64,000 nt of DNA from Alphaproteobacteria bacterium (GTDB lineage Bacteria; Pseudomonadota; Alphaproteobacteria; JANQMY01), in the NCBI GenBank assembly GCA_965227095.1, contig CBDDFL010000001.1:85539-149538 (forward strand), given 5' to 3'. Below the pieces are notes generated by a model. The model ran no database searches. It worked only from the letters and a program-made list of their open reading frames with translations, and was not told the origin of the DNA. A program made the position numbers and the translations under genes. Shown piece after piece: positions 28,520-33,805 of this stretch; within the stretch, counting starts at the first letter, position 1, and each line of letters starts with the position of its first letter.

Positions 28520-28557
28520 TCTCGACAGACGGGTTTTGTAACCCCGTCCGCAGGTTC
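28520..28557. repeat. REP element copy 5 (inverted relative to copy 6; flanks RAYT start)
   Basis: ctctcgacagacgggttttgtaaccccgtccgcaggttc. Confidence 0.8.
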
Positions 28558-28559
28558 AT

Positions 28560-29111
28560 ATGATCCGCCTATTAGATCGGAGAACGTGGCCTATGCCAAT
28601 CGTGCGTATCAAACCGTTTGCAAAAGATGGTGTCTATTTCGTGACGCCGACGGTTTGGAATTGGTACTACCTGTTCGATCGGCACAATCGGTGGCAGATC
28701 ATCGCGGACAGTCTGCGGTATTGCCAAGATCACAAATCTCTCAAGATCTACGCTTACGTCTTCATGCTGAACCATCTGCATTTGATCATTCAGGCGGACG
28801 ATGCCGAAAACGTTTTGCGGGATTTTAAGCGGCACACCTCAAAAGCGCTCAAAGAGAATATTCGCGCAACGGAACCAAATGTCCTGACATTATTCGAAAC
28901 CACTGATAGCACCTGGCGTCTTTGGAAAGCAGATAACCAACCACAGCTGATTGAAACGGAAAAGTTCTTTCGCCAGAAGCTCGATTACATTCACGCCAAC
29001 CCCGTACGCAAAGACGACGGGTCACAAGCCGAACACTGGAAATGGTCATCCGCTAATCCGGATAGCCCTCTAAAAATTGAACCGTTATCCTTATTGACGG
29101 GACAGCAATGA
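28560..29111 (+). CDS. REP-associated tyrosine transposase (RAYT, IS200/IS605-like Y1 HUH)
   Basis: HUH motif MLNHLHLIIQ and catalytic Tyr region LDYIHANPVRK; 183 aa; flanked by inverted REPs. Confidence 0.85.
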   Translation: MIRLLDRRTWPMPIVRIKPFAKDGVYFVTPTVWNWYYLFDRHNRWQIIADSLRYCQDHKSLKIYAYVFMLNHLHLIIQADDAENVLRDFKRHTSKALKENIRATEPNVLTLFETTDSTWRLWKADNQPQLIETEKFFRQKLDYIHANPVRKDDGSQAEHWKWSSANPDSPLKIEPLSLLTGQQ

Positions 29112-29149
29112 ACCTGCGGACGGGGTTACAAACCCCGTCCGTCAATGGC
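29111..29149. repeat. REP element copy 6 (flanks RAYT stop)
   Basis: gaacctgcggacggggttacaaaccccgtccgtcaatggc; the outer arm gaacctgcgg is the inverse of ccgcaggttc at copy 5. Confidence 0.8.
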
Positions 29150-29187
29150 ATAGGCAGCGTTGTCAACGAGAGGCGGCAGCACGTTTA
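29150..29187 (-). pseudogene. 12-codon remnant of a second PhyH-like gene start fused to REP copy 6
   Basis: The rc reads GTG-LPPLVDNAAYA..., compared with the intact PhyH N-terminus MLPPVVDNAADA; about 80% nt identity over about 100 bp to 26921-27030, including upstream sequence. Confidence 0.45.
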
Positions 29188-29418
29188 CGTCCGTATTTGT
29201 TTGGGCGGCTGAAGACGCTTCTCAGTATGGCATAGACATGATGCGTGCTTATCCCGCTCTCTACGCGGGAATAGGCAACATTAGCGAACGAATCACTAAC
29301 CTGGCAGCCTAATTAAGTATAGCAGGTGCCAATTTGGTGGGAAACCAAATGGATCGCACTTGCCCTCCATCGGTGCTTTGTTATTCTGGGACAATCTTAA
29401 CGATAATGGAGGAAGCTC

Positions 29419-29847
29419 GTGTCTACACCGACAGACGGTAGTTTTGACGCCCTAAATCTAGACGCTGTCTTAAACACAGCTGTTGATCAAGCCTCTGGAA
29501 TAATCAGCAGTGTCAAAAATCCTTCGTGGGATAAACTATCGCCGGTAAAGCAGTTCCCCGGCAAAATTTCGAAAAATGTCATCCCAATAGATTTTGAAGA
29601 ATATCGGATGCAGATTGTCACAAAAGTTGAACCCGGCACTCTTGTCGACACACATAAGCATGTGGAATCCGTATTCCGATATGTCCTGGATGGCGACCTT
29701 ACAATAAATGGTCTGGCACACGGACCAGGTGATTGGGTACTTGTCCCTGGAAACACCCCATATCGAGTAACAACAAACGGCGGATACACAGTTCTAGCTT
29801 CTTACGGAGCCAAATGCGGATCCCCACATGACCGCGTCGTTAAGTAA
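29419..29847 (+). CDS. cupin-domain protein
   Basis: ThkHvesvFryVLdGdLti...GpGdwvlvPgn pattern of small cupins; located in a low-GC islet. Confidence 0.55.
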   Translation: MSTPTDGSFDALNLDAVLNTAVDQASGIISSVKNPSWDKLSPVKQFPGKISKNVIPIDFEEYRMQIVTKVEPGTLVDTHKHVESVFRYVLDGDLTINGLAHGPGDWVLVPGNTPYRVTTNGGYTVLASYGAKCGSPHDRVVK

Positions 29848-29926
29848 GACATTGAAACATCAGCACAGAACCTTTGCGGACGAGATATCAAACTGTCGAT
29901 AGATAATCTATGTGGGGTTTCGCTGA

Positions 29927-30616
29927 ATGCCTCTCACCATGACTATATTTCCAAAATTAAATGAGAAGGTACTAATACGGTGGATCGAGACATATTGCGA
30001 GCTCCATGATGTTTCCCATTGTCGTCCAAAAGTTTTCGCCGAATCCGATTGGGAAACCGATATTGATATTTTTGCAGATCAGAACAGTTGGGTGCGCGTG
30101 GAATGGCCTCCGTTATTCGGTATAAACACGGTCCCAGCTTCAGAGTATTTTTCACGAGCGCTTGATTCTGTCGTCGTTTCCTCGGAATTTCTTGATGACC
30201 ACGGATGGACCTATGTGATTCTGGATCGAGGCGTGATCAAGGACAAGTTTGTAAATTCACGTTTCAGATATAACCTTACCGAGGAGGAGGCAAAAGATTA
30301 CGTCGGGAATGCAGAGATTTTGGCTAAACACTTCAACATCCCTACACAGAATATCATTCCGTATTTGCGGCACATTGAAAGCTATGGAATATGGGATGAG
30401 CTAAAAGTCTTGTTGGGCTTAAAAATGAGACCCAAACCAATTGGCAAAGTTTTTTTGGATGACCGCTATCAATTGGATGACGAGCGTGTTTTTTTTGATT
30501 TTTGGCGCCGACTTGGTTTTAATCTTTCTTACGATGGTGCACCTGCAGGAACTGCTCGAATCAAGATAAAAAAAGGCTTTCACGACAAGTTCCCCAAAAA
30601 TCAAATAAGTTTCTAG
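29927..30616 (+). CDS. hypothetical protein (low-GC islet)
   Basis: 229-aa ORF, about 40% GC versus about 60% surroundings; no family recognised. Confidence 0.5.
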   Translation: MPLTMTIFPKLNEKVLIRWIETYCELHDVSHCRPKVFAESDWETDIDIFADQNSWVRVEWPPLFGINTVPASEYFSRALDSVVVSSEFLDDHGWTYVILDRGVIKDKFVNSRFRYNLTEEEAKDYVGNAEILAKHFNIPTQNIIPYLRHIESYGIWDELKVLLGLKMRPKPIGKVFLDDRYQLDDERVFFDFWRRLGFNLSYDGAPAGTARIKIKKGFHDKFPKNQISF

Positions 30617-30647
30617 CGACCTCCACGTTATCACAGCAAACTGGCCC

Positions 30648-31310
30648 CTACTCCACCCGCTCGAAATCCTTGAACAGCAGCACATAGTCTTCCGAGATGG
30701 CGCGGCGCAGGGTTGAGCCTTCGCGGCAGATGACGGCACGGGTAAGCAGTGGCGGCAGGTCCGCGAACACGCGTTCGAAATGGTGTTCGAACACGAACTT
30801 GTCGAAACGCATGAATAGGGTCGGTTCGATTTTTTCATCCGTACGGATACTATATCGGGTAAGGCCGCCTAGTGGACCTAAACCAAGTTCCGCCTGCACG
30901 TTTTCAGCCACCTTGGACTGCCGCGGCGCCTGAAACCGATAGACCGTTTCGACAGGTGACATGGAGATCAATTCCGCTCCCGCGATGGACTTGCGGTAGT
31001 CCGCCGCCACCAAGCCGCCTGGCATGGCCTCCAACCGTTTGGCGTGGGCCAGTTTACCGCGCGCCGTCGCGTCGAGTGCATTCGGGTCGCCCTTGAGCAC
31101 CGTCCACCGCCCGCTTGAGGCGTTGTAGCGTTCGACGATTTCGGGGCCGTCCGCCCATTGAAACACCAAGGTGAACGATAGGCGCAGATCCGCATGGGCT
31201 TCGGCCTCTCGCAGCGCTTGCTCCACCGGATCGGGCAAGGTGCTGGCCCCTGCGGGCACCGCACCCAATAACGCCCCTATGAGGGCGAGAATTTTGACCA
31301 ATGACCCCAT
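30648..31310 (-). CDS. hypothetical secreted protein
   Basis: Signal peptide MGSLVKILALIGALLGAVPAGAST; 220 aa. Confidence 0.55.
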   Translation of the reverse strand: MGSLVKILALIGALLGAVPAGASTLPDPVEQALREAEAHADLRLSFTLVFQWADGPEIVERYNASSGRWTVLKGDPNALDATARGKLAHAKRLEAMPGGLVAADYRKSIAGAELISMSPVETVYRFQAPRQSKVAENVQAELGLGPLGGLTRYSIRTDEKIEPTLFMRFDKFVFEHHFERVFADLPPLLTRAVICREGSTLRRAISEDYVLLFKDFERVE

Positions 31311-32130
31311 GGGCGTTTTCTGCTATCCTCTTTGGTGAGGGAGGCATCTGACAGCAGAGGCCTCACATGAGAGAGCGAACAAACCGCACCGAGAGTACCA
31401 GAGGGTCCACCAGGGCCCTTTTGTTTTGTGTGGTTAATCGGGGTCACTTTTCCGTTAGGTGGATGACCCCCTGTGTGCCCGTGAATTGGGTTGGCGGCAC
31501 GCCAAATCAGGGATGTCGTCCCAGCCCTGAGCTGGGACCCATAGCCCCTAATTTTACGGGTTTGGCCGAGGCCTTTGTGACGGGAAACGAGGCGTCGTCG
31601 CACCTTGTGTGCTGCGGCGTATGGATCCCAAGCTCGCGGACAGGGTCCGCTCCTTGGGATGACAGCAAGAGGGTGCGGCCGTCCGGTTCCCCGACCGCCA
31701 CCTCCGCGATAACAAGAGCCAAAACGAAACACCGCCGTCATTGCGAGCACAGTGTCTATCCGCTTGGCCCGTTCTGCCCCCACTCGAAGCCACCCGCCAG
31801 GGTACCGTATCCGGGTGCTTGGGAGGGGGAGTGGGTGGCATGGTGATCAAACATTGGATGAACCCCATGCGCCCATCTTCTATGGGCTGCGCCACCCGAC
31901 TCTCTTCTCCACGCCATTGCCTGTCGTGTTCCGGCAATCCAGGGGCCATCTGCTCCGAACAAGCTGCTCTGGATCCCAGGGACAAGCCTTGGGATGACGA
32001 CGGCAGTAGGCCAATCCCTATTGTTTTGTTTTACCGAACAATGTGTTTCGAATTATCCGAATTGTTTTCGAACCATCGCGCCCGCATATTTCCCCCAGAC
32101 GCAATCGAAACCCTTTTGGAGATACGGGCC

Positions 32131-32589
32131 ATGACACAGAATTCCCTCATCTTGCCGGTGTTTGAGCCGCTCTATGACGGCCTTACCAAATATACGGACA
32201 CCGCCGTGCGCGTGGCCGCCGGCTTGTTCCTGGTACCCCACGGCGCACAGAAACTGTTCGGCTGGTTCGGCGGTTACGGACCTGCCGCTACAGGTCAATT
32301 CTTCGAACAGCAATTGGGCTTTTCTAACGGCTTGCTCATGGCCGTGGCCGCGGGCTCCGTCGAATTCTTCGGCGGCATGTTGCTGGCCCTGGGCCTGCTC
32401 ACCCGGCCCGCCGCGGCAGCAGCCTCGGTTCTGCTGTTGGTGGCGCTGACCATGCATGTGAGCAACGGCTTCTTCTGGACAGAGGGCGGCTACGAATACC
32501 CCCTTCTCTGGCTGATCGTGACACTTACCTTTGTTGTTAAAGGCGGCGGCGCCTATTCGCTGGACCGCATGATTGGAAGGGAATTTTAA
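32131..32589 (+). CDS. DoxX-family membrane protein (YqjF-like)
   Basis: DoxX hydrophobic pattern ...AVRVAAGLFLVPHGAQKLFGWFGG...; start set at the internal ATG 32131 (the ORF extends upstream through implausible sequence). Confidence 0.8.
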   Translation: MTQNSLILPVFEPLYDGLTKYTDTAVRVAAGLFLVPHGAQKLFGWFGGYGPAATGQFFEQQLGFSNGLLMAVAAGSVEFFGGMLLALGLLTRPAAAAASVLLLVALTMHVSNGFFWTEGGYEYPLLWLIVTLTFVVKGGGAYSLDRMIGREF

Positions 32590-32590
32590 G

Positions 32591-33562
32591 ATGGGACTGC
32601 TTATCGACGGCGCTTGGAAAGACCAGTGGTACGACACCGGAAAAACCAAAGGCGAATTTGTGCGCCAAGAGGCCAAATTCCGTAATTGGATCACGGCGGA
32701 TGGGTCACCGGGCCCGTCCGGCACGGGCGGATATAAGGCGGAAGCAAACCGCTACCATCTTTATGTCTCACTGGCCTGCCCCTGGGCACACCGGACCGTG
32801 ATCTTCCGTAAGCTGAAGGGCTTGGAAGACATGATCGGCCTGACCATCGTGCACCCCCATATGCTGGAAAACGGCTGGGAGCTGCGCGACGACAACGGCA
32901 ACAGTGTGGATCCGTTGCACGGCCACCGGTTCATGCACCAGGTTTACACCTCTGTGGTGCCGGACATGACCGGACGCGTGACGGTGCCGGTTCTGTGGGA
33001 TACCCAGACCAACACGATCGTGAGCAATGAATCGTCGGAAATCATCCGCATGTTCAACTCCGCCTTCAATCACTTAACCGGCAATAGGGATGATTATTAC
33101 CCCGCTGATTTGCAAGATGAGATCGATGCGCTGAACGAACGTGTCTATCACACGGTGAACAATGGAGTGTATCGCGCGGGCTTTGCCACCACCCAGGATG
33201 CCTATGAAACAGCGTTCGCCGATTTGTTCGACAGTCTGGATTGGCTGGACGAACGCGTGAGCCAACAGCGCTATTTGTTTGGCGGCCGATTGACCGAAGC
33301 CGATTGGCGCTTGTTCACCACTTTGATCCGGTTTGATGCGGTCTATCACGGCCATTTCAAAACCAACAAGAAGCGGATCGAGGATTACGAACACCTGTCC
33401 GCCTATCTGCGGGATTTGTACCAGCACCCCGGCGTCAAGGAGACCGTGGATTTCTGGCACATCAAAGAACATTATTATGTCAGTCAGCGGACGATTAACC
33501 CCACCCAAGTGGTGCCCGCCGGCCCCGAATTGGACTATGACCGGCCGCACGGCCGGGCCTAA
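32591..33562 (+). CDS. Glutathionyl-hydroquinone reductase (Xi-class GST, YqjG/ECM4-like)
   Basis: Active-site CPWAHR motif, YHLYVSLACPWAHRTVI; conserved pairing with the upstream doxX as in E. coli yqjF-yqjG. Confidence 0.85.
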   Translation: MGLLIDGAWKDQWYDTGKTKGEFVRQEAKFRNWITADGSPGPSGTGGYKAEANRYHLYVSLACPWAHRTVIFRKLKGLEDMIGLTIVHPHMLENGWELRDDNGNSVDPLHGHRFMHQVYTSVVPDMTGRVTVPVLWDTQTNTIVSNESSEIIRMFNSAFNHLTGNRDDYYPADLQDEIDALNERVYHTVNNGVYRAGFATTQDAYETAFADLFDSLDWLDERVSQQRYLFGGRLTEADWRLFTTLIRFDAVYHGHFKTNKKRIEDYEHLSAYLRDLYQHPGVKETVDFWHIKEHYYVSQRTINPTQVVPAGPELDYDRPHGRA

Positions 33563-33805
33563 AATTGAAATGCTGATGAAAGGATGAACATCTTGATAGC
33601 AGACTGCGCGTCATACCAGCGCCTGTCGCTGGTATCCAGGGTGAGGCTCAAGGGCGTGACGGCACGCTCATCGTCTTGTGGCCCCTGGATTCCCGCAACG
33701 CGCTCCCGCGCGCGGGAATGACGCCGGGGTTGGAGAAAGGATGTACAGGAACAAACATTATTGGGCAGGCGCAACGTGTACCCGTCCAAATCGTGGAGAT
33801 GTATT

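Follow-up and report, generated by a model that had tools for sequence, protein, structure and literature searches.

Stop-free reading frame upstream of the doxX-yqjG operon in uncultured Alphaproteobacteria: a candidate translated leader populated by palindromic repeats

The tract examined here, positions 31311 to 32130 of a 64,000-nucleotide stretch of alphaproteobacterial DNA (hereafter the window, at its full length; GenBank assembly GCA_965227095.1, contig CBDDFL010000001.1, positions 85,539 to 149,538 of the forward strand), is an 820-bp divergent spacer with a minus-strand open reading frame (ORF) of 220 amino acids (aa) (30648 to 31310) on one side and doxX (32131 to 32589) on the other. 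In relatives of this tract, one reading frame that starts at a conserved ATG (31367 in the window) was kept free of stops up to doxX without conservation of the peptide, which suggests that the act of translating is what matters. We tentatively regard the tract as a long 5' leader that belongs to the doxX-yqjG(-pirin) operon, is restricted to this clade, and overlies the ancestral doxX promoter. That this leader is translated and carries a translation-coupled attenuator, with ribosome coverage carrying transcripts from a distal promoter into doxX, is the reading that we favor, at a little under an even chance. The original prediction, made from the letters of the window, had handled the tract as a single unit and offered a structured noncoding RNA, a long leader, or a decayed element. 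Comparison of the sequences indicates that the tract is a mosaic of four parts and not one object, and the long leader is the best fit of the three options: a conserved promoter-like box, a start codon, and a terminator lie at the far end, and the open frame joins them to doxX in relatives. The features of the frame are as follows.

31367 to 31369, plus strand: conserved ATG, start of the leader ORF, kept in all loci despite diverged flanks.
31367 to 31846, plus strand: leader ORF-a, 159 codons, from the ORF listing; the relative P0132 is 93% identical and has the same end.
31840 to 32130, plus strand: ORF-b frame, which starts at ATG 31840, overlapping the stop of ORF-a (ATGGTGA), and runs in frame into doxX; ORF 31741 to 32589 is in the doxX frame.

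The comparison set consisted of 12 homologous loci from uncultured Alphaproteobacteria. Loci L001 to L003 were obtained by a genome scan with YqjG, in metagenome-assembled genomes (MAGs) at 82 to 86% identity. Loci L081 to L083 and L088 to L093 were taken from contigs that encode matches in protein searches, for which DoxX and the 220-aa protein were the queries. Frames up to doxX were counted in 10 complete loci, the window included; L083 and L090 are partial. Coding regions could be aligned among these relatives, and the spacer, 397 bp (L082) to 924 bp (L001) long, aligned in patches only. Because gene callers had annotated ORFs of 168 to 172 aa across the spacer in L091 to L093, stops were counted frame by frame. 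The ATG frame had no stop up to doxX in 9 of the 10 loci (L081, L082, L088, L089, L091, L092, L093, L003, and L001; 339 to 858 nucleotides [nt]) and two stops in the window. The other five frames had 1 to 12 stops each (1 to 9 in the other plus-strand frames), close to the 5 to 10 expected from composition, and plus-strand stops came to about half the minus-strand count. The partial loci were concordant, L083 being open in the ATGA phase and L090 being open to the end of its contig. In dinucleotide shuffles, the probability of zero stops was ~0.01 per locus; the variable middle segments alone gave a product of 5e-7 over five lineages, and an estimate in which each plus-strand stop was put in a random phase and shared segments were counted once gave ~1e-5, all of which are optimistic figures that overstate independence, as the lineages share ancestry. 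A control stretch of 324 bp, rich in repetitive extragenic palindromic (REP) elements and located upstream of the promoter-like box P1 in L001, had stops in every frame.

The frame reached doxX in a restricted set of phases: the doxX ATG was in phase 2 (ATGA overlap) in seven loci, in phase 0 (in frame) in three, and never in phase 1. Listed ORFs ended at the doxX ATGA in L003 (4570 to 5544) and L001 (4939 to 5544), and in L081 the frame formed a 438-aa fusion with doxX. Further called ORFs of 166 to 308 aa had the same layout (P0133, P0134, P0138, P0139, P0140, and P0143), with P0138, P0139, P0140, and P0143 (201 to 308 aa) added by a profile search. P0143 corresponds to P0133 plus two extra REP doublets and was still open to the same C terminus. 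Four of these ORFs (P0133, P0134, P0138, and P0143) end in ...RRW(T/I), peptide ends that would fit an xxATGAC overlap with an MT... start. These additional cases were found because they are ORFs and so illustrate the pattern without being a test of it. In L003 (5067 to 5999), the frame of doxX itself likewise had no stop over the 474 nt that precede the doxX ATG, and two of the three plus-strand frames were nearly stop-free there.

The uninterrupted ORF expected of a protein gene was thus present in the relatives (0 stops in 9 of 10 loci), and the peptide was not conserved. Residues 2 to 10 were unrelated between lineages with ~80% identical DoxX, and similarity appeared only where DNA-level motifs are translated; mean column identity of the leader peptides was 36%, confined to those motifs. 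Depending on the locus, the doxX operator was read in phase 0, 1, or 2, and a conserved element here called motif A was read as WMNPMRP or LDEPHAP. Single indels that were not multiples of 3 were compensated nearby (13+1, 1+4, and 2+8). The GC content of codon positions 1, 2, and 3 was flat in the leader (~0.54/0.57/0.57, versus 0.6/0.42/0.72 for doxX, yqjG, and the 220-aa gene). Pfam gave no match for the leader ORF, and an exhaustive phmmer search against 1.84 billion representatives returned the same leader ORFs only, including the more distant P0133 and P0134 with the same order of elements. A very fast-evolving orphan protein gene, placed first in the doxX operon and having absorbed palindromic repeats in frame, would account for three things: the ORF remains open downstream of a conserved ATG, its stop and the doxX start overlap as ATGA in the manner typical of operon genes, and it has been annotated by gene callers in several assemblies. 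We consider such a gene very unlikely in view of these search results, the unrelated residues 2 to 10, the translation of homologous DNA in different phases, the flat composition, the conservation of motif A at the nucleotide level, and the presence of an intrinsic terminator at codons 12 to 20. The earlier statement that the tract holds no credible ORF was correct for the window read alone (no Pfam match and flat codon-position composition) and did not extend to the relatives, which keep the frame from ATG 31367 open.

The start codon lies within a compact 5' module (31321 to 31428) with the order TGnTATnnT, about 7 nt, GAGGGAGG with a stem-loop, ATG, and a terminator (GGGyCC-loop-GGrCCCTTTTGTTTT). 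The module was ~108 nt long in all 8 loci that carry it and was kept across these 8 loci at 51 to 100% identity of the 220-aa protein, with flanking DNA that could not be aligned. Besides the ATG, it comprises three features.

31321 to 31329, plus strand: P1, an extended -10 promoter-like box TGCTATCCT (TGnTATnnT), in the same register in 8 of 8 module loci, including L001.
31337 to 31364, plus strand: G-rich, Shine-Dalgarno-like GAGGGAGG at the predicted 5' end, with the 5' stem-loop (GAGGC/GCCTC, inner stem); GAGGG(G)AGG in 8 of 8 module loci.
31400 to 31428, plus strand: intrinsic terminator, located within the 5'-terminal part of the ORF, AGAGGGTCC-ACCA-GGGCCCTTT followed by a T tract; found by a terminator scan and conserved in all loci.

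Its register suggests that P1 may act as a promoter; a generic sigma-70 scan gave no full promoter at this site. GAGGG plus one further G were invariant columns, and the 5' hairpin was predicted in every locus (-13 to -20 kcal/mol; 93% of its cells paired). The tandem GAGG-GAGG may be a candidate hairpin-bridged Shine-Dalgarno (SD) sequence. In most loci an in-frame stop was located 15 to 18 nt upstream of the leader ATG, with no alternative start between. Ten loci had exactly 49 nt from the ATG to CCCTTTT and L090 had 9 nt more (58 nt), a spacing that would be explained by an open-frame constraint. The terminator starts 33 nt after the ATG (codons 12 to 20), and the frame was open through its hairpin in all loci. 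Its stem (31400 to 31421) has 9 pairs followed by TGTTTTGTGT, i.e., the GC-rich stem-loop and T tract of an intrinsic terminator. In the terminator helix, 96% of cells were paired and one pair occurred as CG/UA/UG, which is modest support given the few sequences. On a model-guided alignment of the whole module, 94% of cells were paired, compared with 31 to 68% when the partners were slid, and two pairs had changed on both sides; with 8 sequences, this support is likewise modest. The proposal of a structured noncoding RNA held for the first ~95 nt only (5' stem-loop and terminator, with 94% of cells paired and two compensated pairs), which had no Rfam match.

In the interior of the module, conservation was limited to GAGGGAGG (mostly paired), the ATG, and an ACC; the single-stranded middle, between the 5' hairpin and the terminator, was poorly conserved and predicted to be unpaired. 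No conserved accessible seed of a small RNA (sRNA) was found in the module among the 8 loci. A covariance model of the module matched only its 8 training loci; additional copies were found neither in the window nor in the doxX-yqjG loci of other taxa, ~1 Mb in all. These results bear on an alternative in which P1 to the terminator is an independent gene for a trans-acting sRNA of ~95 nt, followed by neutral palindromic repeats and a normal doxX promoter, the open frame being a by-product of stop-poor repeats and shared ancestry. The module is laid out like a typical sRNA gene, with a box resembling a promoter, then a 5' hairpin, and then a terminator and its U tract. The palindrome, terminator, and operator contained no stop in any plus-strand frame, and the repeats were found in other ORF contexts. 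The module also stays beside the 220-aa gene where an insertion separates it from doxX (L090/L002). We nevertheless hold this alternative to be unlikely. In 9 of 10 loci the frame without stops was exactly that of the ATG and the other plus-strand frames had stops (1 to 9), frameshifts were compensated, plus- and minus-strand stops were asymmetric, and the control repeat region of L001 had stops in every frame. Moreover, the ATG was conserved and the putative seed region, from hairpin to terminator, was not, and the module had no paralogue by covariance model (window and ~1 Mb of related loci) and no Rfam match. The insertion itself, of an IS110-family transposase, interrupts the leader of one MAG at a point between the 5' module and doxX (L002 1 to 1175 and L090 1 to 100); the two contigs have overlapping sequence at the end of the insertion.

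The order of stem-loop and then terminator ahead of a stress-related operon also recalls a riboswitch or another structured cis-regulatory RNA in which a ligand controls the terminator. Searches for the multi-helix conserved core with covariation that is typical of riboswitches gave two simple helices only, with variable sequence between them, and there was no Rfam match up to an E value of 10. Together with the poorly conserved, predicted unpaired interval between hairpin and terminator and a target gene 0.4 to 0.9 kb away, beyond variable repeats, this makes a riboswitch-like element extremely improbable.

Prevention of terminator hairpins and of Rho loading by a ribosome close behind the polymerase is described in a published account (PMC5021804). 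In the translated leader that we favor, RNA would start from P1 (extended -10 box at 31321), its 5' end being the SD-like GAGGGAGG in a stem-loop just before the AUG at 31367. With no ribosome behind the polymerase, the terminator 33 nt after the AUG would form, and an RNA of ~95 nt, ending at 31428, would be released. Upon a prompt start of translation, the ribosome would melt the terminator and then translate the whole 0.4- to 0.9-kb spacer, crossing the unit of motif A and palindrome, the REP-like hairpins, and the operator of the proximal promoter P2, and would stop at or enter the doxX start (ATGA overlap). Ribosome cover of the hairpin-rich, C-tract-containing spacer would shield the transcript from Rho and bring ribosomes to doxX. 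Selection would then act on the openness of the frame and not on the peptide, so that palindromic repeats could accumulate if they add no in-frame stop. Firing of P1, use of the AUG, function of the terminator, and involvement of Rho are all putative steps, read from sequence features. Possible, with more doubt attached, is the wider proposal of an operon leader of 0.4 to 0.9 kb whose sole coding constraint would be that it is translatable, in which a start codon before a terminator would gate transcription and repeats would be stop-free, "ORF-neutral" passengers.

Parts of this scheme resemble known systems. In translation-coupled transcription attenuation of pyrBI in Escherichia coli, a short leader peptide ends soon after the attenuator. 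As in pyrBI, an intrinsic terminator lies within the leader ORF of the tract, after its start codon, and a close ribosome would block the hairpin. Unlike the short pyrBI peptide, the ORF of the tract continues for 113 to 308 codons (113 to 286 in the loci compared) to the structural gene; it has no U-rich pause region before the hairpin and no apparent sensing of nucleotides or amino acids. In leaders of the tna, mgtA/mgtL, and corA type, leader translation suppresses Rho-dependent polarity, and the known leader ORFs are short, with a long untranslated spacer after them. Here, too, downstream expression would depend on a ribosome-covered long leader, and C-rich tracts such as CCCACTCCCCCTTCCCAACCACCC would be good Rho loading sites if untranslated; the difference is that the whole spacer was apparently kept translatable, with Rho having a presumptive role. 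Termination at 31428 would free an RNA of ~95 nt with a 5' hairpin and terminator, like sRNAs derived from 5' untranslated regions (5' UTRs) or attenuators, but, unlike these, the RNA would have no conserved single-stranded seed and no paralogues in the window and ~1 Mb of related loci.

Several observations weigh against a translated leader. Base pairing occupies most of the SD-like motif, which is located at a distance of 22 nt from the AUG. Besides a conserved SD of its own, doxX has a proximal promoter/operator older than the leader, so that there is no obvious need for P1. The frame was broken after 159 codons in the window and in at least one relative (P0132). The ORF-a stop (TGA) results from motif A copy 2 being in phase 0 (GGA TGA), and a second in-frame TGA is located at 31859; since P0132 ends at the same 159 aa, the break is probably real. 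Continuous ribosome coverage in the window would still be possible by coupled restart at ATG 31840, and it is only this assumed overlapping restart that rescues continuity there. In 3 of 10 loci and in ORF-b of the window, the open frame runs in frame into doxX and would give an N-terminally extended DoxX. Conservation of motif A at the nucleotide level is not accounted for by a translated leader. The unit of motif A and palindrome and the REP-like hairpins were also present in called ORFs elsewhere (P0141, P0142, and P0144), and these repeats may be stop-poor for reasons unrelated to doxX. Finally, besides the shared ancestry of the lineages, several loci are long-read contigs with 2x coverage, in which 1-nt indels may be errors.

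Motif A, consisting of GGATGAACCCCATGCGCCCATC and a short hairpin, was found at a fixed offset after the terminator. In L088, L089, L091 to L093, and L001, a palindrome of ~65 nt, with a C-rich arm, a GGTACC center, and a G-rich arm, is followed by a second occurrence of the motif. The corresponding features of the window are listed below; between the degenerate copy 1 and the palindrome, the window has ~300 bp of extra hairpins.

31440 to 31482, plus strand: GGGGTCA/TGACCCC hairpin and degenerate motif A copy 1 (31461 to 31480); L088, L089, L082, and L001 have intact copies likewise 94 nt from the ATG.
31776 to 31839, no strand assigned: 64-nt palindrome with C-rich arm, GGTACC center, and G-rich arm, from the comparison of loci.
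31856 to 31892, plus strand: motif A copy 2 (GGATGAACCCCATGCGCCCATC) and short hairpin, with a core shared with relatives.

The first of these hairpins had been written as ggggtcac...gtgacccc, which was imprecise; it reads GGGGTCA...TGACCCC (31440 to 31471). A 16-nt motif A core, TGGATGAACCCCATGC, was identical in the window, L001 (two copies), and L003, and a 19-nt form, GGATGAACCCCATGC(G/A)CCC, was present in the window and six loci, with A in L001. Motif A was conserved at every codon position, i.e., at the nucleotide level. The arms of the palindrome covaried between loci (CCCCCTTCCC/GGGAAGGGGG versus CCCCCGGCCC/GGGCCGGGGG; TT/AA versus GG/CC). Its central 23 nt were exact reverse complements in L091 and L092 (about 2100 to 2170 in each), loci that are otherwise 96% identical without indels, meaning that the segment enclosed by the inverted arms has flipped recently.

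Other identities for motif A were considered and rejected. As a sigma-54 promoter, its GG-to-GC spacing is one base too long, and as an extracytoplasmic function (ECF) or RpoH promoter, it has no conserved -10 box at a fixed distance after it (both judged by eye). The start of a leader peptide (MNPMRPS) does not fit the different phase that motif A has in L003 and in the second copy of L081, and a minus-strand peptide (MGAWGSS) lacks an SD and has no conserved length. A metagenome scan for motif A gave 4 chance matches inside coding regions and no widespread repeat in JGI data. In three proteins (P0141, P0142, and P0144, known from protein entries), the unit of motif A, palindrome, and motif A was found, translated, inside called ORFs with unrelated N termini, and P0139 (308 aa) had motif A-like peptides four times. 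The presence of the unit in other ORFs indicates a repeat dispersed in the clade and not unique to doxX.

The remaining hairpins of the tract were REP-like, with conserved flanks (GTCAT-stem-loop-stem-ATCC), and always occurred as convergent doublets (GTCAT..ATCC/GGAT..ATGAC). Three doublets were found in the window (31515/31663, 31913/31998, and 33610/33722), two of them in the tract and the third in the yqjG-pirin spacer; all five or six REP-like copies within the 64-kb window sit in spacers of the doxX operon.

31515 to 31663, no strand assigned: REP-like doublet 1, GTCGTCCCAGC..GCTGGGACCC (31515 to 31543) and inverted GGATCCCAAG..CTTGGGATGAC (31623 to 31663), from the comparison of loci.
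31737 to 31765, plus strand: GTCATTGCGAGC, a remnant of a REP-like element, from the comparison of loci.
31913 to 31998, no strand assigned: REP-like doublet 2, decayed GCCATTGCCTG..CCGGCAATCC (31913 to 31941) and GGATCCCAGG..CCTTGGGATGAC (31971 to 31998), with an intact homologue in L088.

Doublet 1 was shared with L081, absent from L082, L088, and L089, and seen as peptide in P0133 and P0134. Related doublets were present in L088, L089, L001, and L003, and their number, position, and presence varied between close relatives; these variable hairpins explain the length and hairpin density of the tract. The hairpin-dense tract described in the original prediction was real (GTCCCAGC/GCTGGGAC at 31518 to 31538, with 8 of 8 bp; ATCCCAAG/CTTGGGAT at 31625 to 31660; and ATCCCAGGG/CCTTGGGAT at 31973 to 31995), and so were its paired related motifs, with CCTTGGGATGAC occurring exactly twice (31652 to 31663 and 31987 to 31998). 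Its suggestion of a decayed element applied to several REP-like remnants, e.g., 31913 to 31941 compared with the intact copy in L088.

The tract might then be nothing but junk, i.e., a spacer inflated by REP/MITE-like insertions in which only the doxX promoter/operator is functional and the 5' module is the promoter/5' UTR of the 220-aa gene. Repeat number and position indeed differed between close relatives (spacers of 397 to 924 bp), DoxX relatives at about 70% identity manage with a spacer of roughly 100 bp beside a divergent LysR gene, and, taken from the opposite strand, the -10 box is AGGATAGCA and lies near the start codon of the 220-aa ORF. However, the module was intact in L001, from which the divergent 220-aa gene is absent, and the terminator is strand specific with compensated pairs. 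With the open-frame statistics added, this explanation appears quite unlikely.

Similar to REP, REPIN, and BIME elements and the rhizobial RIME, the hairpins of the tract are short and GC rich, have conserved flanks (GTCAT..ATCC), and form inverted doublets in operon spacers, with gains and losses among close relatives; as in REP systems, a REP-associated tyrosine transposase (RAYT) gene is located nearby, 2.2 kb from the tract. Unlike in those systems, the nearby RAYT is flanked by a different REP, and the elements of the tract are in a stop-free frame. The RAYT gene (28560 to 29111; NCBIfam REP_Tyr_transpos, 85.5 bits, with a cutoff of 80) is flanked by inverted REP hairpins GACGGGGTTTGTAACCCCGTCCG at 28525 to 28559 and 29109 to 29146, a unit also present in L081; these hairpins at the RAYT were unrelated to the GTCAT..ATCC hairpins of the tract, so that no cognate relationship was found. 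The Rickettsia palindromic elements (RPE) are inserted in frame in protein genes of Rickettsia. The tract shares with them alphaproteobacterial palindromic repeats inside an ORF that is not broken by them, and it differs in that the host ORF has neither a conserved protein sequence nor coding composition. As far as the absence of Rfam and Pfam matches can tell, the repeats had no sequence relation to RPE. The yqjG-pirin spacer that holds the third doublet (33610 to 33722) had stops in all plus-strand frames and is represented by only 36 nt in L091 and L093.

Next to doxX, the TTCGAA-rich near-palindrome reported earlier does exist (32036 to 32075); it is a conserved doxX operator/promoter and not part of an RNA element.

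32036 to 32067, no strand assigned: operator-like inverted repeat GAACAAT-N18-ATTGTTT, conserved in all clade members.
32062 to 32090, plus strand: P2, the putative proximal doxX promoter, TTGTTT-17 nt-CATATT, with the 17-nt spacing kept in 8 loci.
32118 to 32133, plus strand: doxX SD (GGAG) and ATG; in relatives, ATGA also gives the stop of the leader ORF.

The clade consensus was GAACAAT-N18-ATTGTTy overlapping TTGTTy-17 nt-CATATy, followed by the SD and the doxX ATG. A DoxX relative at 70% identity (L095), which has no leader, had TTGTTT-17 nt-CATATC in its short upstream region beside a divergent LysR gene; another at 71% (L004), also with a short upstream region, had the related repeat GGACAAT..ATTGTC, and L013 had a divergent LysR-type gene too. 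The inverted repeat overlaps the -35/-10 region and is shared with relatives that have a divergent LysR gene, as expected of a LysR-type doxX promoter. Because the P2/operator pattern was found in relatives with short spacers, the near-palindrome is the ancestral doxX operator/promoter, and the long leader is specific to the clade.

If the frame is functional, gene finders and intergenic-RNA screens would both misread such regions, which would be neither protein genes nor noncoding RNA but translated spacers. The tract would then be an example of selection on ribosome traffic alone, linking attenuation, Rho polarity, and the tolerance of REP/MITE-like repeats in transcribed DNA, and would provide a second, postinitiation input to doxX-yqjG-pirin, a thiol/quinone stress operon otherwise under a LysR-type operator. 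Were this general, long leader ORFs without sequence constraint would form a class, and repeat families would be adapted to life inside them. If the frame is not functional, the tract would still have an explanation, namely, a module resembling an sRNA, palindromic repeats, and an ordinary promoter.

With regard to composition and setting, the GC content of the tract was 0.58, the same as that of the flanking genes (0.55 to 0.63), and the tract is therefore not GC rich as had been stated. Folding of the whole tract was moderately better than that of shuffled sequences (z = -2.9; 20 shuffles only). The Rfam search proposed along with the original prediction gave nothing: Rfam 15 had no match in the whole window at gathering thresholds, and positions 30500 to 33000, at E values up to 10, had one chance match only (E = 7.3), inside a neighboring gene. 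No tRNA was found, self-BLAST of the tract against the 64-kb window gave no second copy of any part, and no sRNA or leader upstream of doxX was found described in the literature. The 220-aa ORF has a signal-peptide-like N terminus and had no Pfam or NCBIfam match. doxX matched Pfam DoxX and is followed by a yqjG-type glutathione transferase gene (32591 to 33562) and then by a pirin-like ORF.

Elsewhere in the window, ARAGORN called a permuted tmRNA ("tmRNA*," 502 nt) at 1800 to 2301; it had no Rfam tmRNA match (gathering threshold and E up to 1), long ORFs overlap it, and it is probably a false positive. A segment of low GC content (0.41 to 0.47) at 29145 to 30641 contains a cupin ORF (29419 to 29847) and a 229-aa ORF without a family (29927 to 30616). 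In the close relative L081 this segment is replaced by ~550 bp, and it is thus likely a recent insertion or replacement.

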